Shown piece by piece: positions 9,557-56,835 of a DNA stretch of 64,000 nucleotides. The stretch's first letter is position 1. Every line of letters starts with the position of its first letter. The notes under the pieces were generated by a model. That model was not told the origin of the DNA. It was given only the letters and a program-made list of their open reading frames with translations, and ran no database searches. This DNA comes from Candidatus Nealsonbacteria bacterium. GTDB lineage: Bacteria > Patescibacteriota > Minisyncoccia > Minisyncoccales > MHMH01. The DNA lies in the NCBI GenBank assembly GCA_016188865.1, contig JACPGX010000001.1, forward strand, positions 141,197-205,196. Direction: 5' to 3'. Both the position numbers and the translations under genes were made by a program.

Positions 9557-10213
9557 TTAAATTGATTTTAATTCTAAAAATAAGTTACCCTTGGGATTTC
9601 CTTTCGGTCCATAAAACCAGTTATCCTTTATGCCTTCCACTCTGTATTTGGCTTGACTTATGTCAAAATTGCTTTTTTTAAACATTTCAATCCACCATCC
9701 TGAAGGTTGTCTTATAATGTGAGAGGGATCTTTTTCATAGGCGGGAATGATGAAGTGCTCCTCAAAACCTACCGGCACCACAACAAACCACCTGTCTGCC
9801 AAGCTTCTCATTTCTGCAAGCACCGATTTTAAAAAATCTTCGTTTGCGAAAGAGTGCTCCAAAACATCTTTCGTAAAGCCAATATCGTAATGTCCGTCTG
9901 CCAAAAGAGAAACATACTGTTTTATTTCTGGGTCGGCATTTTCAATAGCATACTTGCTGATATCAACTCCGTAAGCCTGATAACCCATTCTTCTTAATGC
10001 TTTAACGAAAAAACCCTTGGCGCAGCCATAATCTATGATGGTTTCTGTCTTTTTGGGATTCATTTCACTTACAAATGCTTTTGCCGCCCTAAGGGTCGTT
10101 TTCGGCATCCAATGATAATTTGTATACATGGATTTGCCGGTTTCAATTCCCCTTTCAAAATAATCACCGTCAAACATTTTGGCTAATTTTTGTTTGGTGT
10201 ATTTCGTTTCCAT
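9557..10213 (-). CDS. Class I SAM-dependent methyltransferase
   Basis: Motif I-like IIDYGCAKGFFVKALRRMGYQAYGVDIS. Confidence 0.7.
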   Translation of the reverse strand: METKYTKQKLAKMFDGDYFERGIETGKSMYTNYHWMPKTTLRAAKAFVSEMNPKKTETIIDYGCAKGFFVKALRRMGYQAYGVDISKYAIENADPEIKQYVSLLADGHYDIGFTKDVLEHSFANEDFLKSVLAEMRSLADRWFVVVPVGFEEHFIIPAYEKDPSHIIRQPSGWWIEMFKKSNFDISQAKYRVEGIKDNWFYGPKGNPKGNLFLELKSI

Positions 10214-14692: not shown

Positions 14693-14781
14693 TCTTGCCG
14701 AGGAAGAAAATACCAATCGAATATCAATTTTCGGTCTCTCAATGGAATACTTTGTCGCTAAAATCGCGATGCAGTTAGACG

Positions 14782-14806
14782 ATGTTAGACGTCCGACGTC
14801 TAACAT
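14782..14806. repeat. 25-bp perfect palindrome (REP-like hairpin), copy 1
   Basis: ATGTTAGACGTC-C-GACGTCTAACAT. It is preceded by a partial direct copy, GTTAGACG, at 14774-14781. Confidence 0.9.
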
Positions 14807-14809
14807 CTA

Positions 14810-15496: not shown

Positions 15497-15509
15497 GATT
15501 ATAATATAA

Positions 15510-15536
15510 CATGTTAGACGTCCGACGTCTAACATG
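15510..15536. repeat. 27-bp perfect palindrome (REP-like hairpin), copy 2
   Basis: CATGTTAGACGTC-C-GACGTCTAACATG. Its inner 25 bp are identical to 14782-14806. Confidence 0.9.
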
Positions 15537-15540
15537 TTCT

Positions 15541-35489: not shown

Positions 35490-36529
35490 TTAAATTCAAA
35501 GATTATTTTATCAATAAAATTGTTTAAATTATGGTTTTTGACAACTATTTCTCTTAGGGCGGGGTCTTCCGCGGCTCCCATTAAATTAAGCATCTTTTGA
35601 GCTAAATCTTTCTCATCTCCTTTTTTGAACATGTACTTTTGAGCCAAAATCTCTCGATATGCCTCATTGCAGGTAAGAACCAGGCAACCCGAAGACATGG
35701 CTTCTAAAACCACCTTATCCAGACTGCCGGTTGAGCTGGGATTAACGAAAAGGTCGGCCCAATTAAAGTATTCCGGCATTTCAGAAAAAGAAACTCCGCC
35801 GGCAAACTCAATATGGCTCTCCAAATTATAATTTTTAACCAAATTTTTCAAATCGGCTAAGTATTCTTCCTGAGATTTTAAAAGCGGCCGGCCGAGGATC
35901 CTCGCCTTTAAATTATTAATGTTCTTTTGATTGACTAAGATATTAACTGCCTCAATTAAAGTTTTGTGGTCTTTCACCGGCACAAGTCGGGCGGCGTACA
36001 GAATTTTGATTACGCGAGGTTTGACCTCCTCGGGGGGTCGAACCTCTTTAATTGGTTTAAAAAATTCCGTATCTATCGCCTGTCCGACTACTTCAATTTT
36101 TTTACTTTTTAACCGGCAGCCGGCAGAAGATGAGGTAACAATAACATTCACTAATTTTTCTGCTAATTTCAGCTTCCAGGGAAGAGCGCCGTGGGCATAC
36201 CATAAAACCAGTTTTTTGCCGAAAAGCTTAGCCAAAGGAAAAGCGGCTATAGCGAAAATAGAACCCATGTGGCAATAAACGCCGTCTGATTCCGGCAGGC
36301 ATTTAAATAGAATTTTCTGCATTCTAAAAAACTGCCTTATTTTGGAATAGCCCTTTTCTTTGCCCAAAGAAAAAACCTCAACGTTTTCCGGCAAATGATG
36401 CTCTCCAACCTGCAACCCTACAACAAAAACTTTTTCCAGTTTTTCTGAAAATTTTTCCAAAATCCTATGAAAAAAACTTAAGTTATCATCGTTAAAATCT
36501 ACTCTTTGAACGATAATTAAGAGTTTCAT
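35486..36529 (-). CDS. Glycosyltransferase, GT4-like
   Basis: GSLDKVVLEAMSSGCLVLT and ILYAARLVPVKD. It carries the 31-nt palindrome at 36016-36046 in its interdomain linker. Confidence 0.75.
   Translation of the reverse strand: MKLLIIVQRVDFNDDNLSFFHRILEKFSEKLEKVFVVGLQVGEHHLPENVEVFSLGKEKGYSKIRQFFRMQKILFKCLPESDGVYCHMGSIFAIAAFPLAKLFGKKLVLWYAHGALPWKLKLAEKLVNVIVTSSSAGCRLKSKKIEVVGQAIDTEFFKPIKEVRPPEEVKPRVIKILYAARLVPVKDHKTLIEAVNILVNQKNINNLKARILGRPLLKSQEEYLADLKNLVKNYNLESHIEFAGGVSFSEMPEYFNWADLFVNPSSTGSLDKVVLEAMSSGCLVLTCNEAYREILAQKYMFKKGDEKDLAQKMLNLMGAAEDPALREIVVKNHNLNNFIDKIIFEFK
36016..36046. repeat. 31-nt palindromic element (type B, degenerate copy) inside a GT4 gene
   Basis: GAGGTTTGACCTCC-TCG-GGGGGTCGAACCTC. 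Translated on the minus strand as EVRPPEEVKP. Confidence 0.75.
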
Positions 36530-37647: not shown

Positions 37648-37702
37648 ACTTAGGACTTAGGAACTTAGTTTCTAAGTAAACTTAGAAACTAAGTTCCTAA
37701 GT
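37648..37702. repeat. 48-bp perfect palindrome (22-bp arms, 4-nt loop) preceded by an extra ACTTAGG unit
   Basis: ACTTAGGAACTTAGTTTCTAAG-TAAA-CTTAGAAACTAAGTTCCTAAGT at 37655-37702, with an extra ACTTAGG at 37648-37654. It covers the stop codon of 37697-38689. Confidence 0.9.
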
Positions 37703-38689
37703 TCGTTTTAATATCCGTAACGTTTTCTCCACTAAATTATCCCAGCTAAAATCTTTTAATTTCTCTCTAGAATTGCGGATAAATTTTTCCTGCAAACTCT
37801 TGTCGCTCCACAACTTCAAAATAGCTTGCTTTATCTGTTCTTTATTCTTGTATTCTACCAAAAAACCATTAAAATTATCTTCAATTAATTCCGGATTGCC
37901 CCCTTCACTGCTGGCTATCACCGGCACTCCAAAACTCATTGCTTCCAATATGACATGAGACAGACCCTCATAGCCTGAATTTAAAACAAACATATCGGCA
38001 GCCTTAAAGTAAAAAGGCATTTCTTCATGGGGAACTTTTTTATCCTCTCCGACAATTACTAATTTGAAATTTGGATTTTCTTTAAGCAAGTCTGGCATAA
38101 TGGCCCTTAAGTCGTCGAAGCCCTTCCATGGCACAGGACGTCCAACTGATAAAATAATATTTCCGTCAATGCCAATATTTTTTTTGGCATCCTCCTTAGA
38201 AATATCCGGTCGAGAACCGTTCTCGACCGCATTATAAATAACCTCTATTTTGTTCTCCGATACGCGCCAAGAAGCCACCATTTTTTTAACATACCTGCTG
38301 GGAACAATAATTTTATCAGCTCCTCTGGCAACATAAGCCTGAATACTTTTTAAATAATTCTTCTTCTGCTCCCAGGCTGCATCCCCGACAACCTTTAAAA
38401 CAAATTTTTTTCTTAATAATTTTGCCGCCCAGAAAGCCGGCAATCCTGCGCTAGTCGGATTTTGAGCATAAATAACATCAGCCTCTTTTGCCAGCCGAAG
38501 CAAACCCAAGAAATATAAAAAATGCTTTAAACCTTTAGGGTATTTTTTCAATCTTCCTGAATAACTAATAACTGGCTGATTCAATTCTTTGGCCAGCCTT
38601 TTAACATATGTCGCTGGCCCGCCAATGTCAGGCGGATATATGCCGGTGGCTAAGACAATTTTCATATATTTTAAATACCTCTTGGGCAA
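37697..38689 (-). CDS. Glycosyltransferase, GT4-like
   Basis: MKIVLATGIYPPDIGGPATYV and EGLSHVILEAMSFGVPVIASSEGGNPELI. The likely true start is the ATG at 38665. Confidence 0.8.
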   Translation of the reverse strand: MPKRYLKYMKIVLATGIYPPDIGGPATYVKRLAKELNQPVISYSGRLKKYPKGLKHFLYFLGLLRLAKEADVIYAQNPTSAGLPAFWAAKLLRKKFVLKVVGDAAWEQKKNYLKSIQAYVARGADKIIVPSRYVKKMVASWRVSENKIEVIYNAVENGSRPDISKEDAKKNIGIDGNIILSVGRPVPWKGFDDLRAIMPDLLKENPNFKLVIVGEDKKVPHEEMPFYFKAADMFVLNSGYEGLSHVILEAMSFGVPVIASSEGGNPELIEDNFNGFLVEYKNKEQIKQAILKLWSDKSLQEKFIRNSREKLKDFSWDNLVEKTLRILKRT

Positions 38690-39740
38690 TATTCTGCCAA
38701 TCGTATCTCGTTAATCCTGCAATAGCAAAATTAACGAGGCGCTCTCTTAATTCTGGATTATTATAAATTCTTAATATGGCTTTGGCAATCTCCTCTGGAT
38801 TTCCCGGCGTCACCAAAAGACCATTTTTCTCATTTTCGATAATATCTAAAATTCCGCCAACCTTGCTTGCAATAACCGGGACCCTAGCTGCTATGGCTTC
38901 CAAGATAGCTATGCCGAAGCCCTCTTTCAGGGAAGGCAAAACGAAACAGTCCGCCATAGCCAGATATTCTGGAATGCCTTCTGGAGGAATCGGTCCCAAA
39001 AATTTTACTTTCTTCACTAAGCCGAGCTCTCTGGTCAAATTTTCTAAATTTTTTCTTTCAGAACCATCGCCGATAATGAATAATTGGAGATCCGACCCCG
39101 CCAAGGCGAGATCGGATCTTGTAAAAGCCCTAATCAAATATTCTATCCCCTTTACTTTTTCCAACCTCGCCACCGTCATCACCACAAAACCATCTTTTTG
39201 TTGTTTCTTTAAATTCTCAAATCTTTTTAAATCAACGCCGTTAGGTATTACCTCAATATTTGAGCATCCGATTTCTTTAAAATATTCTTTGATGGCGGAA
39301 CTTGCAGCAATGCAGACTTTAGCGTTTCTATAAACTATTTTTTTTAAGAAATTATTCCCCTCCAACCTCTGAACGGTCACAATGTAGGGTATGTTGACAA
39401 TTTTTGAAATATAATATCCTATGCAGGCCCCCAGAAATCCTTGGCAGTGTAAAAGATTAATTTTCTGTAATAATATTAGAAAAAAAGAGCGCGAAAATAT
39501 GAATGGCATAGCTGTCAAAATGTGAAAGAACGAAGAATAGGAAAGGTCTTTCAGGGCAAATAAAGATGTCCGAAAAATTTTAACTCCATTTTTAACTTCG
39601 TGTTTGGCGCTATCCCCAACCCTAGCTGTAACAACAAAAATTTCGGCTTTATTCGCAAGCTTTTCGGCAATATTTTGCGTCCAGGTCTCTAATCCTCCGA
39701 TCACGGGATAATAATGTAAAACCGGCATTAAAATTCGCAT
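38628..39740 (-). CDS. Glycosyltransferase, GT4-like
   Basis: MRILMPVLHYYPVIGGLETW and EGFGIAILEAIAARVPVIASKVGGILDII. Confidence 0.8.
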   Translation of the reverse strand: MRILMPVLHYYPVIGGLETWTQNIAEKLANKAEIFVVTARVGDSAKHEVKNGVKIFRTSLFALKDLSYSSFFHILTAMPFIFSRSFFLILLQKINLLHCQGFLGACIGYYISKIVNIPYIVTVQRLEGNNFLKKIVYRNAKVCIAASSAIKEYFKEIGCSNIEVIPNGVDLKRFENLKKQQKDGFVVMTVARLEKVKGIEYLIRAFTRSDLALAGSDLQLFIIGDGSERKNLENLTRELGLVKKVKFLGPIPPEGIPEYLAMADCFVLPSLKEGFGIAILEAIAARVPVIASKVGGILDIIENEKNGLLVTPGNPEEIAKAILRIYNNPELRERLVNFAIAGLTRYDWQNIAQEVFKIYENCLSHRHISA

Positions 39741-40828
39741 AGTACATTTTTTATTGATTCCAACATCGTTCTAATATCTTTTTCCGCGTAGTAATTCTGC
39801 AAGGGGAAATTGATGATTCTCTTGGCGACTTCAAAGGTGTTGGGGAATTCTTCCCGGCTTAAAACAATAGGCGTGTGCCAAATGCGGGTGCAGAAAACTC
39901 GGTACCTTCTCAATCCCGCCACAATTTCATCTCTTTTATTTTCCAAATTTTTGGGGACTAAAGCGGAAAGATAACAAAAAACGTTGTTTTCGTGCTCTTG
40001 AACTTCAAAACCTAAATTTTGAAGCTCTTGCTGAAAAAACTTAGCAAGCTTTATCCTGTTTTGCATAGATTTTTCAAAATCTTCCAGAGAATAATAGAAA
40101 AGGGCCAAAGATAACTTATTGAGGCCTGCGGGCTCCGGTAATTTTTCCTTTCTTAGCATCTTCGGAGCGATATCGTTGCCAAACTTTTTAAAAATAAAGG
40201 CGAAAAAAGGAAGGCAATTCAGTAAAGAAATGAAATCCCTGAAATTAAAATTGGTTTTTGGCAGAGAGATTTGCCAATCCTTGGGACAAACTAACAATCC
40301 GCCTCTTAATGCCGGGAATTGCTTGTAAAGACTGAAAAATGCAATATCACTTTTCGGCTTAACCCCGAAAGCATGAGCGCAATCTTCAATAATCGCAATA
40401 TCGGAGGTCCGACCTCCCGACAAATATGACGGGAGGTCGGACCTCAATCCATCAACATCGAACGGGAGACCGTAGGTGTGGCACACTAAAATCGCCTTTG
40501 TCCGGGGAGTAATCTTCCTAAAGATTTCTTCTCTTTTAATATGAAAAGTTTTCAAATCAATATCCAAAAAAATCGGTTTTATATTATATTTCTCTAAAAT
40601 TGGCTGGAATATATCGCAAATATAAGCCGGCATCATTATTTCTGAATTTTGAAGATTCAACTTTCCAATAATAATTTTGAAAGCAGACCGGCCCATGTCG
40701 GTGAAAATAAGCTGTTTACTCGGAAAATATGACTCAAGTTTTTGAGCTAAATTAATCTTCTTGAAATTATTAAGTTTTATTTGCGGGTGGACGAAAAACA
40801 TACTAGTCTTACTCTGGCTAGGCACCAT
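39728..40828 (-). CDS. Divergent DegT-family PLP-dependent aminotransferase carrying an in-frame palindromic element
   Basis: HTYGLPFDVDG, IIEDCAHAFG and FFSLYKQFPALRGG (Lys retained). The residues LRSDLPSYLSGGRTSD are encoded by the repeat at 40403-40445. Confidence 0.65.
   Translation of the reverse strand: MVPSQSKTSMFFVHPQIKLNNFKKINLAQKLESYFPSKQLIFTDMGRSAFKIIIGKLNLQNSEIMMPAYICDIFQPILEKYNIKPIFLDIDLKTFHIKREEIFRKITPRTKAILVCHTYGLPFDVDGLRSDLPSYLSGGRTSDIAIIEDCAHAFGVKPKSDIAFFSLYKQFPALRGGLLVCPKDWQISLPKTNFNFRDFISLLNCLPFFAFIFKKFGNDIAPKMLRKEKLPEPAGLNKLSLALFYYSLEDFEKSMQNRIKLAKFFQQELQNLGFEVQEHENNVFCYLSALVPKNLENKRDEIVAGLRRYRVFCTRIWHTPIVLSREEFPNTFEVAKRIINFPLQNYYAEKDIRTMLESIKNVLCEF
40403..40445. repeat. 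42/43-nt nested double-hairpin element (type A), copy 1, inside a DegT-family gene
   Basis: GGAGGTCCGACCTCC-CGACAAATATGAC-GGGAGGTCGGACCTC. Its reverse complement matches 46914-46955 at 40 of 42 positions. Confidence 0.9.
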
Positions 40829-41475
40829 CCAAACGGCCTGCCAAAAATATTTTCAAATGATAAAAAAAATTTAGGAGATAAATTCAAATTTAATGGAGGA
40901 TAAGTATTAAAAATCTTCTGTTTCCTGAAAACGAAGCCTTCTTTTTTAAACTCTCGTTTGATGCCGGAGAGTGAAAGATAGTAAGGGGAGTTTCTGTTGA
41001 TAAGCCTTTTCAGGCTGCCAAAAATCTTATAAAAAGACAGGCAATTTATAAAGTCGCAGATTAAAGTGCCCCCTGGCTTTAAAACTCTGACAATCCCTCT
41101 TTGAACTCCCGGATAGGTAGCGGCCGAAACGTAGCCGAAGCTGGTCACAACATCAAAATAATTATCTGGATATTTAAGATTATAAACATCTCCCTCTTCT
41201 ATATTAATTCTGTTTTCGAGGCCGGCTTTTCTAACTTTTTCCCTGGCGGTCTCAATCGCTTTTTTTGAAATATCAAACCCGATTATTGCAAAATCAGTGT
41301 TCTTGGCCAAAAGAATATCAATTTCGCCTAAGCCGCAGCCGATATCCAGCAGTCTGCCGCTTTTTTTCTCGCCCAAAAGCGCCAAAGTATTTTCTAAGGT
41401 TAAGGTAATTGTAGCCTGCCGCGCTGAATTTAATCTGTAATTTTTTTGACTATATTGCTCCCACTTTTCGCTCAT
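40777..41475 (-). CDS. Class I SAM-dependent methyltransferase
   Basis: Motif I in RLLDIGCGLGEIDILLA; LKPGGTLI lies downstream. Confidence 0.75.
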   Translation of the reverse strand: MSEKWEQYSQKNYRLNSARQATITLTLENTLALLGEKKSGRLLDIGCGLGEIDILLAKNTDFAIIGFDISKKAIETAREKVRKAGLENRINIEEGDVYNLKYPDNYFDVVTSFGYVSAATYPGVQRGIVRVLKPGGTLICDFINCLSFYKIFGSLKRLINRNSPYYLSLSGIKREFKKEGFVFRKQKIFNTYPPLNLNLSPKFFLSFENIFGRPFGWCLARVRLVCFSSTRK

Positions 41476-42458
41476 AATTTATATTTTAATAAATACGGGC
41501 TTAATTTTTTAATTAAAAATGGCGGTAAAAGGCCGAAAATATTTCTGAGGGTTTCGAAGTCCAGCTTCCCTGGAAGGCCGGACTTCATCGTTCCTCCGCA
41601 ATTCGTTAATTCAAAAATCGGATATTCCCTGCCTCCCCAGCCCTGTTTGAAAATTTGCAAAGGAGAACCAATTCTTGTCCCTCCAAAATCGAAAATTTTA
41701 TTATCCTGCAAACTCTTTTGAATTTGTTCCCATAGTATTAAATAATTGGCTCCCAAATTTTTATACTTTTCATCGATGGCATTTTGAAAATAATGGACGA
41801 ATTTTTCATAAAAGAGAAAGGCGCTTCCGGCTATAACAAGGTTATTCTTTTTGGCTAAAATAATCTCCGATTCATTGGAGTTAAAAAAATAATCAAAAAA
41901 AGAAAATGGATATGCCGGAATTTTGTGTCTTTTAGCGCTTTTAAGATATAAATTATAAAAATTTTTAAGGTCTTTCTGGCTTTGACATTTCTCAACTTGA
42001 ATATTATTGGCCTTGGCTTTTTCTATTTCGTGGCGCGTAGTTTTCCTTAAATCAATATCCTCCAAAAAATAACTTACCCTGCCCGACTGGTCGAGAACGC
42101 TTCTCGCCCCATCGAGAGCGAGAAACGTTCTCGCTAGTTGGGGGTGGAAGTTGATTCTGACGCGATTCTTGAATTCAGACAATAAATCCTGCTTAAATTT
42201 TTCGGCATCAATATTTTCCAGCAAAGGCAATGGCCCGCCGTATTCGCAAAATGGATGAGAAATCAATTTATCCCCCACTCTGGCCATGCTTAATAATGCC
42301 TTATCATCGTACATATACCTTTCAAATTTCAACCATTTAAATTGCCTTTCAAGGAATTCCTCCCATTCCATATAATGAAAAAAAGTCTTGAATAAGACTT
42401 TTCCCAACAAATCCTGCCATTCATTTTTGTTTGTAATTTTGGTAAATTTGTTCTCCAT
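41472..42458 (-). CDS. FemAB/GNAT-like acyl- or aminoacyl-transferase family protein
   Basis: The HPFCEYGGPL, LYLKSAKRHKIPAYPFSFF and AGSAFLFYEKFVHYFQNA pattern resembles FemAB-type (Acetyltransf_6-like) proteins. It contains two in-frame palindromes. Confidence 0.45.
   Translation of the reverse strand: MENKFTKITNKNEWQDLLGKVLFKTFFHYMEWEEFLERQFKWLKFERYMYDDKALLSMARVGDKLISHPFCEYGGPLPLLENIDAEKFKQDLLSEFKNRVRINFHPQLARTFLALDGARSVLDQSGRVSYFLEDIDLRKTTRHEIEKAKANNIQVEKCQSQKDLKNFYNLYLKSAKRHKIPAYPFSFFDYFFNSNESEIILAKKNNLVIAGSAFLFYEKFVHYFQNAIDEKYKNLGANYLILWEQIQKSLQDNKIFDFGGTRIGSPLQIFKQGWGGREYPIFELTNCGGTMKSGLPGKLDFETLRNIFGLLPPFLIKKLSPYLLKYKL
41557..41585. repeat. 29-nt imperfect palindrome (type C) inside the FemAB-like gene
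   Basis: AAGTCCAGCTTCCCTGGAAGGCCGGACTT. Translated on the minus strand as KSGLPGKLDF. Confidence 0.55.
42092..42133. repeat. 42-nt nested palindrome (16-nt arms, 10-nt spacer) inside the FemAB-like gene
   Basis: CGAGAACGCTTCTCGC-CCCATCGAGA-GCGAGAAACGTTCTCG, with one arm mismatch. Each arm is itself a CGAGAA..TTCTCG hairpin. Translated as ARTFLALDGARSVL. Confidence 0.8.
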
Positions 42459-43146
42459 TTAAAAATTGGTAATTTTTGCTTTCTAGTAATTTTATGATTT
42501 TTTTGAAATTTTTCAAACTATCCCAGGAGTGAATGCTTAAAGTTATAAAACCCGGACAATAAATAAAAAATAAAATTTTATATAATAAATATGGCAATCT
42601 GCTAATCCATGCGCCGGCTAGAGGAATGCCAAACATTTGCCCTCTAACCGGAATTTCGAGTAATCTAGGTAATTTCAGGTGGTAATAAGGAATTAAGGGA
42701 AATCTGCCCTTATAGCCGCGGTATTTCTTAAATGGCGGGTAATGCGGGACAATACTGCTGTCGTATAAAAACCCATTTTTCTCTAAAATTTCCAGGCCAT
42801 GCTCATCAATAATGTGAGAAGGAGCGCGGAAACCCAGCGGTAACCTTTTGAAAAAACGCCGGTAAAGATCAATAAAATTATCTAATTCTTTTTTTCTTTC
42901 TTCATGGCTTAGAGTATTCCAGAAACGATGAGTAAAGCTATGACAGGCAATTTCATAATCTTCGGCCCATTTCAAAATTTGTAATTGATATTTTTCTAGG
43001 ATTTGGCCGGTTGCAAAAAGAGTGGCAACGACTTTATTCTCTTTGAAAATATCGATAATCTCCTCCATCTTTTCTATGTCGCGCTCGACGTCAACGGAAA
43101 CAAAGCAAACTTTATCTGGCATCTTGCTTTTTACCGTAATAATCAA
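42421..43146 (-). CDS. Polysaccharide deacetylase (NodB/CE4 family)
   Basis: FVSVDVERD, ATLFATGQILEKY and EIACHSFTH (metal-binding His motifs). Confidence 0.7.
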   Translation of the reverse strand: MIITVKSKMPDKVCFVSVDVERDIEKMEEIIDIFKENKVVATLFATGQILEKYQLQILKWAEDYEIACHSFTHRFWNTLSHEERKKELDNFIDLYRRFFKRLPLGFRAPSHIIDEHGLEILEKNGFLYDSSIVPHYPPFKKYRGYKGRFPLIPYYHLKLPRLLEIPVRGQMFGIPLAGAWISRLPYLLYKILFFIYCPGFITLSIHSWDSLKNFKKIIKLLESKNYQFLNGEQIYQNYKQK

Positions 43147-44098
43147 TAATTCTCTTGAGGCTTTCTTCTAACGAAATTTTCGGCTCGTAACCTATAAATT
43201 TTTGGATCTTTGAAAGATCGGGTTTTCTGCGGGCCATATCGTCAAAATCCTCGCCGTAAACTTTGGCGTAAGGAATAAAAGCAATGCTTGATTTGCTGTT
43301 TGCCAATTTTTTGATTTTTTGGGCTAATTCTTTTATCGAAATTTCCTCGTCAGAACCCAAATTAAAAATATGGCCTATCGCTTTGGGGTTATCCGCAAGT
43401 TTAATTAAGGCATCTACCACATCGTCGATATAGCCGAAGCACCTCGTCTGGTAGCCGTCTCCGTAAATGGTTATTGGTCTCCCGGCTAAAGCTTGCTGCA
43501 CGAATCTGGGAATGACCATACCATACACTCCTGTTTGCCTGGGACCTATTACATTGAAAAGTCTGACGGTGATGGCGGGAAGCCCTTTTTCTCTGTAATA
43601 AGCTAAAGCTAAAAATTCATCTGCTCCTTTGGACATGGCATACCCCCAGCGATTATGATAAGCAGAACCGTAAACCCTATCTGATTCTTCGGTAAAGGGC
43701 AACTTATCGTTTTTCCCGTAAATTTCAGAGGTAGAAGCAACAAGAACCGGAACTTTATATTGTAACGCAGCGTTTAGAACAATTTCCGTCCCCCTGATAT
43801 TTAAAAGAAACGAATCTAACGGCTTATCGATAATTGTTTTCACGCCAACGGCAGCGGCTAAGTGATAAATCTGATTAACTTTTTTTGCTAATTTTTCTAT
43901 TTTTTGGCTATCAAGAATTGTGCCTTTTATAAAATGAAAATTTTTGTTTTTCTTTAAATGCGCGATGTTTTTTAAGCTGCCGGTTGATAAATCGTCAATT
44001 ACAAAAACCTCTTCGCCTGATTTGAGAAGTTTTTCTACAAGATGAGAGCCGATAAACCCCGCGCCACCCGTGACTAATGTTTTATTGGTTTTTGTCAT
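43112..44098 (-). CDS. NAD-dependent sugar epimerase/dehydratase (extended SDR)
   Basis: TLVTGGAGFIGSHLVEKL and YAMSKGADEFLALAYY. Confidence 0.8.
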   Translation of the reverse strand: MTKTNKTLVTGGAGFIGSHLVEKLLKSGEEVFVIDDLSTGSLKNIAHLKKNKNFHFIKGTILDSQKIEKLAKKVNQIYHLAAAVGVKTIIDKPLDSFLLNIRGTEIVLNAALQYKVPVLVASTSEIYGKNDKLPFTEESDRVYGSAYHNRWGYAMSKGADEFLALAYYREKGLPAITVRLFNVIGPRQTGVYGMVIPRFVQQALAGRPITIYGDGYQTRCFGYIDDVVDALIKLADNPKAIGHIFNLGSDEEISIKELAQKIKKLANSKSSIAFIPYAKVYGEDFDDMARRKPDLSKIQKFIGYEPKISLEESLKRIIDYYGKKQDAR

Positions 44099-44997
44099 TT
44101 TTCTGATTCTAGCAATCTTTTAATGCCTTCTTCTAGGGCTATTTCCGGTTGCCAGCCAAGCAATTCTCTGGCTTTGGCAATATCAGCTAAAGTATCGCGC
44201 ATTTCTCCCACGGGCAGGGGAATATATTTTTTCTCTCCACCAATAAGATTGGCTATTTCATTCATGCTGTGATTGTGACCCCCTCCGACATTAATTACCT
44301 CTCCCTTGCCAGTTTTCTCTGATTCCATGGCTAAAATATTCGCTCGTGCCACATCGTAAACATTGGTAAAATCACGAGTTTGCTCGCCATCGCCGCTGAT
44401 AGTCAATGGTTTCCCTTCTTTTTTTTGTGTTAAAAAAATCCCGATTACCGGAGTGTAGGCTCCCTCCCTTGGCTGGCGTAGCCCGTAAACATTAAAGTAT
44501 CTCAAAGAAACAGTTTTGAGTCCATAAATATCAAAGAAAATTTTACAGTAAAGCTCGCCAACATATTTTTGCAAAGCATAGGGATTTAAGGGAGAACATG
44601 GCATATCCTCACGCATGGGAAGCGATGCTTGATGGCCGTAAGCCGAAGAAGATGCGGCGTAAATAAATTTTTTGACTCCGGCCTCTTTTGAGGCAATCAA
44701 AGCATTGAGTGTTCCACCGATATTTACATCATTGGTTTCTTTTGGCTTAGCAATCGACAAAGGAATTCTCGGCAAGGCCGCCTCGTGAAAAACAAAGTCA
44801 GCTCCTTCAAAAATTGGACGGATTCTTTCAAAATTACGCAAATCTTCTTTAAAAAACTTAACTCGTGTGTTAAGATTTTCTTTTTTGCCTGTGCTTAAAT
44901 TATCAATAACAAAAACTTCGTGCTCCTTTTTAATAAGGGCGTCTATTATGTGAGAACCAATAAATCCGGCGCCGCCGGTAACGATTATTTTTGGCAT
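44095..44997 (-). CDS. NAD-dependent nucleotide-sugar 4-epimerase-like SDR
   Basis: IIVTGGAGFIGSHIIDAL and YALQKYVGELYCKIF. Confidence 0.8.
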   Translation of the reverse strand: MPKIIVTGGAGFIGSHIIDALIKKEHEVFVIDNLSTGKKENLNTRVKFFKEDLRNFERIRPIFEGADFVFHEAALPRIPLSIAKPKETNDVNIGGTLNALIASKEAGVKKFIYAASSSAYGHQASLPMREDMPCSPLNPYALQKYVGELYCKIFFDIYGLKTVSLRYFNVYGLRQPREGAYTPVIGIFLTQKKEGKPLTISGDGEQTRDFTNVYDVARANILAMESEKTGKGEVINVGGGHNHSMNEIANLIGGEKKYIPLPVGEMRDTLADIAKARELLGWQPEIALEEGIKRLLESEK

Positions 44998-44999
44998 AA

Positions 45000-45836
45000 T
45001 TAAAATGTTTTTCTCACGCCGTATTTTTCGGGGTCGTCAATGTTCTGCTGCTTCATCAATTCGGCATTAATAGACTCGGCGGCTTTGTGAAGCTTGAGGT
45101 CAACGCCTTTTACGTCTGCCAGCTGAATAAAAGCCTTAATGTCTTTCGGCAGGCATTTCCCCCCATATCCCCTGTAGCCTTTGTGAAAAACATTAAGATG
45201 AGTTCGGCCGATTCTTTTATCGGCAGCTGCAGCCTCCACCATTCTATCGTAGTCTGCTCCCAAGGCCTGGCAAACATCATACATCTGATTGGCGAAGCTA
45301 ACCTTAATTGAAAACCAGGTATTGCCAAAATACTTTACCAATTCCGCTTCGGTGGCGGGTACGATTCTTTCGAAAGGAGCTAAGGGTAATAATTGCATTA
45401 AATCGCCGGCCACATCGTGGCTTTTTTCTGTATAACCCACAATCTGACGGTCGGGATACATCATATCCTGATCAGCGGTTTCTTCGGTTAAAAATTCGGG
45501 ATTCATTAAAAGCTTATGCTGGTGATATTTTTTCTGGAGCATTTCAGTGGTACCCGGCAAAACTGTTGATTTAATAACAACTACTTTCTCGCCCGAAAGC
45601 CAAGAAAGAGTTTCTTCAACATAAGACAAATCAAAACCGGTGCCATCTTTTAAGTAGGGAGTTGGCACGCAAATAAAAACGACTTCGGCTTTATTCACTT
45701 CTTCCGGCGAACCCAAATTCTGTCCCTTATCATACACAAAAAGCCCAAGGCCCTCCTTTTTCTCGCAGTATCTCTTCATCGCTCCTCCCACCATCCCAAC
45801 TCCTACAACGCCTACTTTGGTAAATCTTTTATACAT
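45000..45836 (-). CDS. Short UDP-glucose/GDP-mannose dehydrogenase-family protein (lacks the usual C-terminal nucleotide-sugar-binding domain)
   Basis: VGVVGVGMVGGAM Rossmann motif and the catalytic-Cys motif GGKCLPKD. It is only 278 aa, whereas this family is usually about 390-450 aa. Confidence 0.65.
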   Translation of the reverse strand: MYKRFTKVGVVGVGMVGGAMKRYCEKKEGLGLFVYDKGQNLGSPEEVNKAEVVFICVPTPYLKDGTGFDLSYVEETLSWLSGEKVVVIKSTVLPGTTEMLQKKYHQHKLLMNPEFLTEETADQDMMYPDRQIVGYTEKSHDVAGDLMQLLPLAPFERIVPATEAELVKYFGNTWFSIKVSFANQMYDVCQALGADYDRMVEAAAADKRIGRTHLNVFHKGYRGYGGKCLPKDIKAFIQLADVKGVDLKLHKAAESINAELMKQQNIDDPEKYGVRKTF

Positions 45837-45883: not shown

Positions 45884-45917
45884 AAAAAAGCCCGAGGCGT
45901 TAGCCTAGGGCTTTTTT
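45884..45917 (-). terminator. Rho-independent terminator with bidirectional shape (A6 and T6 flanks)
   Basis: AAAAAAGCCC-T-AGGC-TAAC-GCCT-C-GGGCTTTTTT. It includes the stop codon of the YdcF-like gene. Confidence 0.6.
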
Positions 45918-46570: not shown

Positions 46571-47713
46571 ATGGAAACTGTCAATACCGCAAAACGCAAA
46601 ATACTCTTTCTGGTCACCCAATCTGAAATGGGCGGCGCGCAGAGGTATATTTATGAAGTATCAAAAATACTGTCAGAAAGACACGAGATTTTGGTTGCGG
46701 CCGGAGAGGGAGATGGAGAGTTCTTCCAGAAACTAAAAAATACACCGGTTGAACCGGTGTATCTGAAACATCTGCAAAGAACTCCTGAACCGCATTCAAT
46801 TATCATGGCTATCGTTGAAATAATAAAACTTCTCAAGGCAGAAAGGCCGGATGTTTTGTTTTTGTGTTCTACTACTGCTGGGCTACTCGGCTCCATTGCC
46901 GCCCGAATTTACAGAGGTCCGACCTCTCGTCAGATTTGTCGGGAGGTCGGACCTCGCGTAATCTATCGTATTGGCGGCTGGGCCTTCAACGACCCTCGCC
47001 CATTCTGGAAAAATTGGCTTATCCTGCTGGCGGAGAAATTAACCGCCCGATTTAAAGATATAATCGTAGTGAACTCCGAATATGACCTGCGGATTGCGTT
47101 AGAAAAACGAATCGTTTCTCCGGAAAAAATAGTGAAAATCTATAATGGGCTTGATCGAAATTCTTTGAATTTCTTGCCCAAAGACGAAGCCCGTGGTCTG
47201 TTGACATCCGATGTCAACAGACGAATGATTGGGTGCGTGGCGAATTTTTATAAGACTAAAGGGCTAAAGTGCCTTATTGACGCTTTCGATTTTCTGATGT
47301 CCGGCTTCCCGAAGAAGTCGGACATCAAGCTATTCGTCATCGGCGATGGGAAACTGCGGTCGGAACTTGAAGCTCAAATAAAAAAACTCGACTTAGAAGA
47401 CAGGGTGATTTTAGCCGGCAGAATGCCCGACGCCTATAAATATCTAAAGGCATTTGATGTCTTCGTGCTTCCCTCTCTTAAGGAGGGTTTTCCATGGGTC
47501 ATACTGGAAGCTGCGGTAGCTGACGTTCCGATTGTCGCCACAAAAGTAGGAGCCATACCAGAAATATTGCCGGAAGAATTTTTAGTAAAACCAGGCGATG
47601 CCCAAGCTTTGGCAAAAAAAATTGGCTGGATGCTTGAACATCCAGCCGTACCAAAACTCAAGCAGAACTTCTCTCTGCAAAAAATGGCAGAGGAAACCGA
47701 GAGGCTACTCTAA
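46571..47713 (+). CDS. Glycosyltransferase, GT4-like (only plus-strand gene) carrying in-frame palindromic elements
   Basis: SEMGGAQRYIYEV and EGFPWVILEAAVADVPIVATKVGAIPEIL. RGPTSRQICREVGPRV is encoded by the repeat at 46913-46955. Confidence 0.8.
   Translation: METVNTAKRKILFLVTQSEMGGAQRYIYEVSKILSERHEILVAAGEGDGEFFQKLKNTPVEPVYLKHLQRTPEPHSIIMAIVEIIKLLKAERPDVLFLCSTTAGLLGSIAARIYRGPTSRQICREVGPRVIYRIGGWAFNDPRPFWKNWLILLAEKLTARFKDIIVVNSEYDLRIALEKRIVSPEKIVKIYNGLDRNSLNFLPKDEARGLLTSDVNRRMIGCVANFYKTKGLKCLIDAFDFLMSGFPKKSDIKLFVIGDGKLRSELEAQIKKLDLEDRVILAGRMPDAYKYLKAFDVFVLPSLKEGFPWVILEAAVADVPIVATKVGAIPEILPEEFLVKPGDAQALAKKIGWMLEHPAVPKLKQNFSLQKMAEETERLL
46913..46955. repeat. 42/43-nt nested double-hairpin element (type A), copy 2, inside a GT4 gene
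   Basis: AGAGGTCCGACCTCT-CGTCAGATTTGTC-GGGAGGTCGGACCTC. Confidence 0.9.
47297..47325. repeat. 29-nt imperfect palindrome (type C) inside the plus-strand GT4 gene
   Basis: ATGTCCGGCTTC-CCGAA-GAAGTCGGACAT. Translated as MSGFPKKSDI. Contains GTCGGAC. Confidence 0.55.
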
Positions 47714-49414: not shown

Positions 49415-50452
49415 TTAAAAACGCGATTCAAGCCAATTGGCAAAAGATTCGAATGCACTGAAAAGACTGGCTTGGGCTGCGGAAATTTGCTGCTGCAAAA
49501 GCTGAATTAATTGCGCAAGCAAATTAATGATTTTTTGCTGGAGTTCTTGAATTAAAGCCCGGAGTTCTTCTGGAGAAAGAGGACCACCGGTGCCGGTGGG
49601 AGCGGGTTCTTCTTCCTTTATTTGTTGAGGTTCGACCTCCTCGGGAGGTCGAACCTCTTCGATTTCGGGCAGTGGCAGAGTTTTAACGTCCGGGAAAACC
49701 GTTAAAGCAGAAACTAAATTTTGCCCTCGGTCGTTAAAAGCTTTTATCTGCCTTCCAGAATATTCCGTATCAGGCCTTAAGCCTGTTTCGTCAAGATAAG
49801 AAATGTTTGCTCCGCCCGAAGCTACCGTATTCAGATTCTCATCTAAAATTTTAAAGCCGAACTCATTATTGGATAAATCCGTAAAATGCCACCTGATTGT
49901 TGAAGTGGATATTGCCTCGCCTGACTTTGCCAAGGGAGAAACAGGAGCAGAAGGAGTGTCGCTTCCTGCCAGAATCATTCTTTCAAGGCCAATAATTTTT
50001 TTGTCAGTGGGACCCTTAAGACTGACGTCAGGAAAAACTGCTGAATTTATTTGTATTTCCGGTTTAATTGTTTTTCCAGTATAGGTAGTAGAAGCGATGT
50101 CTACGGTAATAAAAATCCTTTGCTTTGTAAAAGTTCCATTGAGAGTTGTGTCAAAAAAAGGAGAAAATGATTTCCTCAATTTTTCAGATTCATCGCCGTC
50201 CCAACCCGGCGAAACGCCGTCTTCATAAATTGAAAGCTGGGAAATATCATATTGCTGAACAGTTCCGGTGTTATCAATTTTTATTGAAGTTAAACCGGCG
50301 CCGGGAAGAGTCAAATCTAAAATCAAGAGGTTAGTAGTGCCAGCCGGCACAGCGTAAGTTGACTGCGGGTTGACTATAAAATCATTGGCTGTTGAAGCAA
50401 AAGAAAAACCAGGCGCTAAAACAAAAACTAAAACTAAAATAATTTTCCTCAT
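49415..50452 (-). CDS. Secreted protein with FN3-like domain and C-terminal coiled coil
   Basis: Signal peptide MRKIILVLVFVLAPGFSFAS. STIRWHFTDLSNNEFGFKILDENLN...TEYSGRQIKAFNDRG is FN3-like. The C-terminus is LRALIQELQQKIINLLAQLIQLLQQQI. Confidence 0.6.
   Translation of the reverse strand: MRKIILVLVFVLAPGFSFASTANDFIVNPQSTYAVPAGTTNLLILDLTLPGAGLTSIKIDNTGTVQQYDISQLSIYEDGVSPGWDGDESEKLRKSFSPFFDTTLNGTFTKQRIFITVDIASTTYTGKTIKPEIQINSAVFPDVSLKGPTDKKIIGLERMILAGSDTPSAPVSPLAKSGEAISTSTIRWHFTDLSNNEFGFKILDENLNTVASGGANISYLDETGLRPDTEYSGRQIKAFNDRGQNLVSALTVFPDVKTLPLPEIEEVRPPEEVEPQQIKEEEPAPTGTGGPLSPEELRALIQELQQKIINLLAQLIQLLQQQISAAQASLFSAFESFANWLESRF
49584..49599. repeat. 16-nt palindrome inside the 345-aa secreted protein gene
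   Basis: CCACCGG-TG-CCGGTGG, translated as PTGTGG. It lies 27 nt from the type B element. Confidence 0.6.
49627..49657. repeat. 31-nt perfect palindromic element (type B) inside the 345-aa secreted protein gene
   Basis: GAGGTTCGACCTCC-TCG-GGAGGTCGAACCTC (14-bp arms). Translated as EVRPPEEVEP. Confidence 0.85.
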
Positions 50453-56280: not shown

Positions 56281-56835
56281 TTAATGTGTCCCATTTTTAA
56301 CATAATATACTCCCCTGCCGGCGCCATTCCTTACCATTATGCCGGTTTGACAAAGCTTATCTAAATCTCGGAGAACGGTTCTCCGATTAATTTCTGGGAA
56401 AAGCCCAACCACATCGCCTATTCTAAATCGGCCGTTTCCGTTAATGTATGCAATAATTTTCTCCTGTCGCCCCGCCTTTGCCAAGGCTTCGGTAGGCAGA
56501 TAGTTATCCACAGTTTTTCCAGAGTCGTGTTGCCCAACATCCGATGTTTGACATAGCTGACTCAACTTATTATATTCTCTCCTTAGGACCTCAAAATTCC
56601 TCGAATCCACCCAATTATTCTGCTTGGCTAAATCAAAAAGCCCAAAAATCTCTGTAATCTTACGAGAACACATCTCGTCCTGACGAGAAATGTTCTCGTA
56701 AGATTCCACCATTATTCTATCAGCTAATTCTCTTATTTTAGAAGCCAAATCCTCTCCAACGGGAAAAAGAGCGGTCACTTTATAGACCGCTAAAGTCAAT
56801 TTTAGAAGATGTTCTTTGTCCAGATTTTGCCGCAT
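56281..56835 (-). CDS. Putative transcriptional regulator: N-terminal four-helix-bundle domain plus C-terminal winged HTH
   Basis: HLLKLTLAVYKVTALFP...IRELADRI is four-helix-bundle-like. INRRTVLRDLDKLCQTGIMVRNGAGRGVYY is a DeoR-like wHTH. Confidence 0.5.
   Translation of the reverse strand: MRQNLDKEHLLKLTLAVYKVTALFPVGEDLASKIRELADRIMVESYENISRQDEMCSRKITEIFGLFDLAKQNNWVDSRNFEVLRREYNKLSQLCQTSDVGQHDSGKTVDNYLPTEALAKAGRQEKIIAYINGNGRFRIGDVVGLFPEINRRTVLRDLDKLCQTGIMVRNGAGRGVYYVKNGTH

Follow-up and report, generated by a model that had tools for sequence, protein, structure and literature searches.

The closest described counterparts of the element presented here are the repetitive extragenic palindromes (REP), their REPIN doublets and the REP-associated tyrosine transposases (RAYT): short palindromes that occur as inverted doublets able to form one long hairpin or two small ones (a 'clover'), singlets beside doublets, several families per genome, and Y1/HUH genes flanked by cognate hairpins, with a separate hairpin family for each paralogue (PMC3116915). 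We find likenesses to these features, in the case of the flanked Y1/HUH genes by family resemblance, in and around a 42-nt nested palindrome that lies within a FemAB-like gene in the genome of an ultra-small Patescibacteria bacterium (Candidatus Nealsonbacteria), at positions 42092-42133 of the 64-kb stretch analysed (hereafter the window). According to PMC3733652, one end of a REP bears a conserved tetranucleotide, GTAG or CGTC, which is absent from the ends of the hairpins of the 42-nt element. Furthermore, whereas REPs are extragenic, the window elements are intragenic, in-frame and translated, their units are much smaller (13-15 nt, with doublets of 31-42 nt) and the enzyme found here, 228 aa long and with a conserved extra C-terminal region, scores under the NCBIfam cut-off for RAYT. 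On balance, and with moderate confidence, we regard the element as a copy of a REPIN-like non-autonomous hairpin repeat, moved by a Y1/HUH transposase and translated in a tolerant loop.

Other systems resemble the element in part. Rickettsia palindromic elements (RPE), which Ogata et al. reportedly described in 2000 as selfish repeats lying in-frame in protein genes and translated as extra loops, share with it the in-frame palindromic repeat in protein-coding genes. RPEs are found in Rickettsia, measure ~100-150 bp, lose their repeat identity over time and, to our knowledge, have no associated transposase; the elements here differ in being 13-42 nt long and in maintaining their palindromy. The small dispersed repeats (SDR) of cyanobacteria are said to have been reported by Elhai et al. 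in 2008 as hairpin-forming, mobile units of ~21-27 nt that can lie inside genes and inside each other. Their link to a transposase is unresolved; compared by description, they too are tiny hairpin repeats that can be intragenic, albeit in another phylum and with other sequences. Mitochondrial hairpin elements include the DHE of Allomyces and the byps of Magnusiomyces. The GC42 clusters of yeast mitochondria are GC-rich, hairpin-forming mobile repeats (PMC4478555). Like our elements, GC clusters, DHE and byps are GC-rich mobile hairpin repeats of ~30-50 nt in AT-rich compact genomes, with merged and shuffled units, compensated stem changes and exchange between species, but they are organellar and mostly intergenic, and byps break the frame and are skipped in translation; by contrast, our elements hold the frame and are stop-free. 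Mitochondrial genes of Nematomorpha contain coding palindromes with arms of 43 bp on average and up to 284 bp, perfect inverted repeats that are translated, gained or lost between species and actively maintained, and for which template switching or conversion has been proposed (PMC6649704); they differ in being long, in lying in conserved protein regions and in having neither dispersed families of one sequence nor a linked transposase. Finally, the IS200/IS605 elements and their miniature derivatives have a Y1/HUH transposase acting on subterminal single-stranded hairpins, and ISDra2 TnpA is the PDB profile match of the window enzyme, but the flanks of the window Y1 gene are identical perfect palindromes instead of a left end that differs from the right one, tnpB is absent here and the dispersed copies are bare hairpin doublets. 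A literature search, incomplete in coverage, returned nothing tying RAYT, REPIN or in-frame palindromic repeats to the Candidate Phyla Radiation/Patescibacteria.

The element reads CGAGAACGCTTCTCGC-CCCATCGAGA-GCGAGAAACGTTCTCG, i.e. two 16-nt arms (42092-42107 and 42118-42133) that are 94% complementary, with one mismatch, around a 10-nt spacer, and a perfect hairpin of 6 bp and 3 nt (CGAGAA-NNN-TTCTCG) is contained in each arm. Its in-frame translation, ARTFLALDGARSVL, makes up residues 109-122 of the FemAB-like protein encoded on the minus strand. The sense RNA is predicted to form a 19-bp stem of -31.6 kcal/mol (antisense, -22.5 kcal/mol), and compared with shuffled sequences the 42-mer folds with z-scores of -6.7 as sense RNA and -5.6 as DNA. 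The preliminary description was exact in the sequence and coordinates of this nested geometry and in placing its translation within the open reading frame (ORF) 41472-42458; the second palindrome that it saw in the same gene, at 41557-41585, is likewise real and proved to be a 31-nt double hairpin (Table 1). Stop codons are absent from all six frames of the 42-nt element, and likewise from those of the 31-nt form; its length is a multiple of three and the host ORF is continuous. With these properties it does not fit a translational bypass element of the byps or T4 gene 60 type.

By an arithmetic estimate, 64 kb should contain only ~0.01 cases of a 16-nt arm that has no more than one mismatch and a spacer not exceeding 16 nt. 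As controls, the codons of all 61 ORFs of the window were either shuffled among synonyms or permuted, the kind of randomisation that the preliminary description had named beforehand as its refuting test, and the outcome was in its favour. Palindromes with arms of at least 13 nt numbered 15 in the window against 4.2+-1.0 in synonymous shuffles and 3.9+-1.0 in codon permutations, GC-rich palindromes numbered 10 against 2.2, and the strict double hairpin (for which the strict count alone was used) occurred once, as 42092-42133 itself, against 0 in 80 shuffles. The same structures are present at orthologous sites of independent assemblies from NCBI, ENA, JGI and Logan, which excludes an assembly artefact. 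The 42-nt nested palindrome is real and far from chance.

Comparison with other copies showed that the element belongs to a family. Two 42-nt elements of the same nested geometry, here called type A, lie in other genes of the window, and the FemAB element (type B) had been thought to be unrelated to them in sequence. This does not hold: the stems GAGGTC-C-GACCTC (type A) and GAGAAC-C-GTTCTC (type B) agree at 9 of 13 positions, the remaining differences being two compensated pairs, so that by their sequences the two types are variants of one module, GAG..C-N-G..CTC. The recurrence of the nested geometry on different stems was borne out. The fixed unit of 16+10+16 nt was not, as the spacers of type-B doublets elsewhere are 5, 8 or 12 nt and the type A site in the DegT gene is graded among orthologues, with no hairpin, a 13-nt hairpin, a 31-nt doublet or a 42-nt doublet. 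The shared length of 42 nt is largely coincidental, and the recurrent units are the 13-15 nt hairpin and the 31-nt doublet. Read in sense orientation, both type A copies agree at 40/42 positions despite lying in different genes, strands and frames; indeed, the copy at 40404-40445 is nearer to the one at 46914-46955 than to its own orthologue in L038 (36/42; L-numbers denote the contigs and loci compared with the window).

A census of 334 kb of Patescibacteria DNA, picked independently of the element sequence, counted 81 perfect GC-containing 6-N-6 palindromes against 26.7+-5.3 in shuffles. Most of this excess was accounted for by the class GA....N....TC, to which types A and B both belong (33 observed, 1.6 expected); in related DNA the module is ~20-fold over-represented. 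In a separate count, GAGGTCCGACCTC-like sites numbered 19 against an expected 0.39. Copies within the element's own genome were counted in the 64-kb window alone, where 7 loose matches to the exact type-B stem compare with 2.6 expected. Doublets are most often 31 nt long, with a layout of 13+5+13. In a gap-free alignment of fifteen 31-nt doublets, taken from different genes and genomes, the ends are conserved, with G1, A2, C14, G19, A20, T30 and C31 invariant; their outer pairs are 95.7% and their inner pairs 93.3% paired, in sequences chosen for being palindromes, and in most of them the loop bases of the two units are reverse-complementary (column pair 7/25). Elements in genes use all three reading phases, and those of the window cluster in its glycosyltransferase/cell-envelope region at 36-50 kb.

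Related copies were also found in unrelated genes of other genomes. Scanning metagenomes for two GAGAA...TTCTC hairpins 4-20 nt apart gave at least 120 loci, many of which (within L044-L163) are AT-rich tandem sites of the AATGAGAATCATTCTCATT type, Fur-box-like by inspection, apparently intergenic and unrelated to the element; these were filtered out by eye and GC content. GAGAAC-N-GTTCTC doublets were seen in ~25 low-GC contigs, and several of these doublets lie in-frame in genes for FemAB protein (twice), prepilin peptidase A24, TsaD, a class I aminoacyl-tRNA synthetase (IleRS-like), a GT4 glycosyltransferase and a Mur ligase (MurC). The type-B doublet in MurC of L148 has both hairpin variants and the mismatch of 42092-42133, with a spacer of 5 nt and in the opposite orientation to its gene. 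This mismatch (loops CGT/GCG) is thus common to the window, L036 and the L148 MurC gene, an indication that the pair was inherited or copied as a whole. Furthermore, a doublet that encodes SAQGGSASGG, made of TCCGCC-CAAG-GCGGA followed by TCCGCC-TCTG-GCGGA, agrees at 29/31 nt when a FemAB-like gene is compared with an IleRS-like class I aminoacyl-tRNA synthetase gene of another organism. Its loci are L040 327-368 and L133 7118-7159, with a third, nearly identical one at L036 14604-14643, and its units begin with TC and end with GA, the register opposite to that of the main class. The MurC gene of L148 also contains, in-frame, an inverted 50-nt doublet of the TGTTAGAC hairpin (VRHSMSNTRVRHRMSN). 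In full, the TGTTAGAC hairpin has stops in one frame per strand, which may be why the stop-free minimal core predominates in genes. A perfect 50-nt palindrome, TGTTGGATTTACGAAGTCCAACA-AGCT-TGTTGGACTTCGTAAATCCAACA, at L148 1241-1290 brings the palindromic inserts of this MurC gene, an essential gene, to three. Most related copies are intragenic, like the element itself; an intergenic doublet of the GA....TC class, AGAAGCTTAGCTTCT-CACTT-AGAAGCTAAGCTTCT, stands between recA and ssb at L164 14269-14303, and the module therefore also takes classical extragenic positions.

A Candidatus Nealsonbacteria metagenome-assembled genome (MAG) encodes a protein that covers 87% of the length of the FemAB-like protein and matches it there at 100% identity. 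The AlphaFold2 model of the FemAB-like protein has a mean pLDDT of 90.3, and the only weak stretches, residues 111-120 (average 65) and 290-297 (below 50), are the coil loops encoded by the two palindromes. We compared the loop of the 42-nt element in 11 orthologues, the window counted. The full doublet is present in the window and L036; the 42092-42106 hairpin stands alone and is decaying in L031, L037 and L038 and occurs as variants in L039 and L041; L040 and L043 have different hairpins, and L042 and L001 have none. The closest orthologue lies in the Nealsonbacteria contig L031, whose synteny with the window spans 38498-45458 (nucleotide identity 75%). Exactly one hairpin (ARTFL) is missing from it, the 15 nt at 42116-42130, and it retains a diverged one, AGAGAA-GTG-TTCTCT, at the 42092-42106 arm. 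Since orthologues vary hairpin by hairpin in this variable loop, a clean indel of 14 codons, as had been anticipated among FemAB-like homologues, does not exist, and the 42-nt element is modular. The 42119-42133 hairpin, missing in L031, is identical in the distant orthologue L036: between the window and L036 the hairpins agree at 30/30 nt, whereas the 12-nt spacer agrees at 6/12 and the gene at 72% (P ~6e-5 for 30/30), and the two FemAB-like genes are far apart in a neighbour-joining tree. At 41556-41586, orthologues have no hairpin, a 13-nt hairpin or a 31-nt doublet, with stems that co-vary by coordinated transitions.

Table 1. Genes and palindromic elements of the window, by position in the 64-kb stretch
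Feature	Position	Strand	Remarks
FemAB-like/GNAT (Acetyltransf_6) protein, 328 aa	41472..42458	-	Pfam FemAB 3.6e-9, Acetyltransf_6 2.3e-6
Type-B hairpin doublet, 15+12+15 nt	42092..42133	-	translated in-frame as ARTFLALDGARSVL
Resident hairpin of the doublet	42092..42106	-	gene sense CGAGAA-GCG-TTCTCG, peptide ARSVL
Second hairpin of the doublet	42119..42133	-	gene sense CGAGAA-CGT-TTCTCG, peptide ARTFL
31-nt double hairpin, FemAB-like gene	41556..41586	-	peptide KSGLPGKLDF
Type A doublet, 42 nt, DegT-family aminotransferase gene	40404..40445	-	peptide RSDLPSYLSGGRTS
Type A doublet, 42 nt, GT4 glycosyltransferase gene	46914..46955	+	peptide GPTSRQICREVGP; frame unlike that of 40404-40445
Perfect 31-nt doublet GAGGTTCGACCTCC-TCG-GGAGGTCGAACCTC	49627..49657	-	L036 orthologue 7 codons shorter here
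31-nt doublet, glycosyltransferase gene	36016..36046	-	same sequence family as 49627-49657
Doublet, GT4 gene	39087..39120	-	L031 orthologue GAGACCCGGTCTC-CTTGG-GAGACCGGGTCTC, all four half-stems changed jointly
Single type-B hairpin GGTCGAGAAC-G-GTTCTCGACC (gene sense)	38204..38232	-	no indel relative to orthologues
Longer type-B-related doublet CGAGAACA.. / CGAGAAATGTTCTCG	56653..56708	-	ORF with sub-threshold DeoR-type helix-turn-helix match
Single GGAGAACGGTTCTCC hairpin	56370-56384		same ORF as the 56653..56708 doublet
Palindrome TGTTGACATC-C-GATGTCAACA, GT4 gene	47194..47224	+	
33-nt doublet GATGTCCGGCTTC-CCGAA-GAAGTCGGACATC, GT4 gene	47295..47327	+	
Intragenic palindrome ATACACCGGTT-G-AACCGGTGTAT	46738..46764	+	family flanks second Y1 paralogue in L164, L165
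Intergenic perfect doublet, CTTAGGAACT-N-AGTTTCTAAG family	37653..37704	.	family flanks third Y1 paralogue in L165
Y1/HUH transposase, RAYT-like, 228 aa	14813..15496	-	HUH motif MPNHFHLL, Tyr motif YLSAYIHRNP
REP-like hairpin AACATGTTAGACGTC-S-GACGTCTAACATGTT	15506..15540	.	ends 11 nt upstream of Y1 start codon
REP-like hairpin GATGTTAGACGTC-S-GACGTCTAACATC	14781..14807	.	directly after Y1 stop codon

A candidate enzyme is encoded in the same window. It was recognised by a Pfam scan of the ORF that adjoins the palindromes at 14781 and 15506: ORF 14813-15496 matches PF01797 (Y1_Tnp) with 39.7 bits (cut-off 23), and its best NCBIfam match is the REP-associated tyrosine transposase with 45 bits, below the cut-off of 80. 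Compared with PDB, the family profile matches ISDra2 TnpA (E 0.007) and E. coli TnpArep 4ER8 (E 0.28); the profile was required, as a direct phmmer search of PDB with the Y1 protein gave no match, and tblastn of the window with YafM and IS608 TnpA queries (approximate sequences) gave a best hint with an E-value of 0.7. The family comprises 1767 homologues, and the listed matches with a source name come mostly from MAGs of Patescibacteria or unclassified bacteria; a search of viral contigs for the family returned none.

One copy of the hairpin ATGTTAGACGTC-S-GACGTCTAACAT stands on either side of the window Y1 gene, with 25 nt identical between the copies. This hairpin (TGTTAGACGTC type) has a 13-nt core, GACGTC-S-GACGTC, that agrees with the type A core at 11/13 positions and differs from the GAGAAC stem; the letters CGTC occur within its GACGTC. 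In L164-L167 the Y1 orthologues have differing gene neighbourhoods and hairpins on both sides in 4/4, so that hairpin-flanked Y1 genes were seen in five genomes, counting the window. Their flanking hairpins have outer stems TGTTAGAC/GTCTAACA and a self-complementary inner part that varies by genome (GACCTC-S-GAGGTC in L167), with a single mismatch in 1/8 copies. L166 has, besides the two flanking copies, a third TGTTAGACAC-TCG-GTGT(T)TAACA hairpin at 10171-10193, inside the Y1 ORF. Paralogues have flanks of other families: one, flanked by ATACAC.GGTT-N-AACC.GTGTAT, shares its hairpin family with the window palindrome 46738-46764, and another, flanked by CTTAGGGACT-N-AGTCCCTAAG, shares it with window 37653-37704 and with nested elements in L036 genes. 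The L164 genome has two Y1 paralogues. The hairpin families of Y1 orthologues and paralogues recur as dispersed copies, some of them intragenic. The structure-specific mobilisation hinted at in the preliminary description has thereby gained a concrete candidate, a Y1/HUH transposase in the window with flanking hairpins of the same module class, but not a Y1 gene with GAGAAC/GAGGTC flanks that would join the enzyme to the element directly.

Under the explanation we favour, the element pairs a REP-like hairpin of 13-15 nt, with the module GAG..C-N-G..CTC, with a second, inverted copy of it, and as single-stranded DNA the doublet can fold as two small hairpins or as one long one. Y1/HUH tyrosine transposases (RAYT/IS200-like), which recognise single-stranded DNA hairpins, would spread such doublets and keep their sequence uniform. 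Copies would persist chiefly where they landed in-frame in tolerant surface loops; survival mainly at such places would follow from the high coding content (~94% of the window), and the minimal module, having no stop codon in any frame, would simply be translated. After insertion, the copies would evolve in place, their arms being re-matched or extended by fold-back/template-switch copying, their hairpins lost or duplicated and their stems drifting by compensated changes. We infer that a Y1 enzyme mobilises the GAGAAC stem class and that template switching performs the in-place maintenance. Remodelling in place is itself directly visible, in a multi-base change of equal length at 38204-38232 and in orthologous palindromes with perfect but different arms. 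At 38204-38232, L038 has only the 13-nt core, L036 has no hairpin and there is no indel, indicating that the hairpin grew in place; this growth and the changed perfect arms fit the template-switch mechanism of PMC8794818, also proposed in PMC6649704.

Several points weigh against this explanation. A hidden Markov model search of all compared loci gave no further Y1 genes with GAGAAC/GAGGTC-type flanks outside L164-L167, nor did any Y1 gene seen here have such flanks. As the flanking hairpin has TGTTA/TAACA outer arms that the element lacks, the link between the Y1 gene and the 42-nt element is one of family resemblance and co-occurrence. The transposase scores under the NCBIfam RAYT cut-off and its PDB matches are weak. 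No target-site duplication or signature and no clean empty site could be defined, the surrounding loops being too diverged. Some hairpins (38204-38232) arose or grew in place without insertion, and at several sites distant orthologues have unrelated palindromes or AT-rich direct repeats on the same codons; a local mutational process accounts for this as well as transposition does. In addition, the pairing statistics of the 15 doublets come from sequences selected as palindromes, and the evidence from the element's own genome covers 64 kb.

The chief rival is a purely local origin. In loops under weak constraint, fold-back or template-switch errors in replication or repair would give rise to palindromes, lengthen and double them and restore the match of their arms, and the products would persist in a genome with few nucleases that remove hairpins. 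A dedicated transposase would play no part, and like stems elsewhere would reflect convergence or rare ectopic copying. We consider this unlikely, although several observations fit it. Besides the growth of 38204-38232 from a 13-nt core by substitutions, the four half-stems at 39087 and 41556 shift jointly between orthologues; distant orthologues have, on the codons of the 47194, 46738 and 47295 elements, perfect palindromes of unrelated sequence (at 47194-47224, L043 has another perfect palindrome and L036 a nested GAAACT-type one); L043 and L038 show direct 7-mer repeats at such sites instead; and the series of 0, 13, 31 and 42 nt at one site is stepwise. Template switching is known to create and repair perfect stems (PMC8794818) and is the process proposed for the coding palindromes of Nematomorpha mitochondria (PMC6649704). 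At the 42-nt element, the extra hairpin repeats its neighbour in inverted form save for 1 mismatch, as a template switch might produce, but the same mismatch recurs in L036 and L148. What such a process leaves unexplained is the 40/42 identity of the type A copies across genes and frames, loop and centre included, the mismatch conserved in three type-B doublets of different genes and genomes, the 29/31 nt identity of the SAQGGSASGG doublet across unrelated genes and organisms, the invariant GA...TC ends, and the Y1 transposases that have the same hairpin families as flanks.

A selected structural signal, acting in mRNA stabilisation or processing, in translational pausing at domain boundaries or as a DNA structure for replication or recombination, is less probable still. 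It would agree with the palindromy kept at orthologous positions over ~25-40% divergence with compensated changes, and with the sense RNA being the stabler one in 12 of the 18 genic elements of the window (the reverse held in 3). This bias had suggested selection on the mRNA through G.U wobble pairs, a possibility we rejected because it was gone in the larger set of 63 genic palindromes from low-GC contigs, where 20 G.T mismatches in the sense strand stand against 18 A.C (p = 0.87); the near-equality argues for a constraint at the level of DNA rather than mRNA. A loose mismatch tally that included weak palindromes was uninformative. Furthermore, the type-B doublet of L148 is opposite in orientation to its gene, elements sit in the least conserved, lowest-confidence loops, a scan of the entire window with Rfam 15 gave no family match at gathering score, and close orthologues lack the elements, which must therefore be dispensable.

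We think it very unlikely that the 6-N-6 palindromes are operator sites of a dimeric DNA-binding protein that fell within genes by chance. Their symmetry and conserved outer GA/TC would suit such sites, and the Fur-box-like AATGAGAATCATTCTCATT matches show that GAGAA..TTCTC palindromes can be operators elsewhere, but freely co-varying stems are not expected of a base-specific operator, the sites are intragenic, in variable loops and present or absent among orthologues, and the Fur-like matches are AT-rich, apparently intergenic and different in sequence. Chance or an assembly or sequencing artefact, for which nothing speaks beyond the general commonness of short palindromes in AT-rich DNA, is practically negligible, contradicted as it is by the shuffle controls and by independent assemblies of four sources, which show the structures at orthologous sites.

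REP and REPIN are extragenic by name and definition, whereas a like architecture together with a matching type of transposase is met here in translated coding sequence and in a major uncultivated bacterial radiation. If the element is indeed a REPIN-like repeat moved by a Y1/HUH transposase, the REPIN-RAYT relationship would extend to Patescibacteria and would show selfish hairpin DNA adapting to genomes almost without non-coding space, by way of stems that are stop-free in six frames. It would also account for many odd short low-complexity insertions in Patescibacteria proteins (RSDL..GGRTS, ENGSP..EPFS, RTVL..RTVL and SAQGGSASGG), a kind of insertion that affects annotation, alignment and structure prediction, and would offer a natural system to study how coding DNA maintains palindromes. 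A wider picture, which we put forward tentatively and hold to be somewhat less probable than its opposite, is that of a guild of miniature REPIN-like doublets in Patescibacteria genes, including essential ones, that are translated and driven by several Y1/HUH paralogues, each with its own hairpin family, and that rewrite protein surface loops. As its hairpins are gained, doubled and lost and drift by compensated changes, such a guild would be both a genomic parasite and a built-in generator of loop diversity, especially in cell-envelope enzymes.

Other repeats of the material are of a different nature. Direct AT-rich tandem repeats replace palindromes in L043 (39087 and 46738 sites; the former is in the orthologue of window 38631-39740) and in L038 (39087 site), examples being TCAAATC x4, with the peptide SNLKSQISNL, and KTQNSKLQLKTQNLK; the loops thus gather slippage products besides inverted repeats. 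The palindrome CCGGCG-N-CGCCGG occurs 8 times in the census, at window 44966-44978 and in orthologues and paralogues, at the start of NAD-dependent epimerase genes where the protein has GGAGFIGS, and is probably a by-product of the coding motif, outside the repeat family. Also outside this family, AAAAAAGCCCGAGGC-gtta-GCCTAGGGCTTTTTT at 45884-45917 separates two ORFs and has the look of a bidirectional intrinsic terminator of the ordinary kind. Finally, the minus strand holds 58 of the 61 long ORFs of the window and the GC skew of the plus strand is steadily negative, a pattern that fits a single replichore in which genes are co-oriented.

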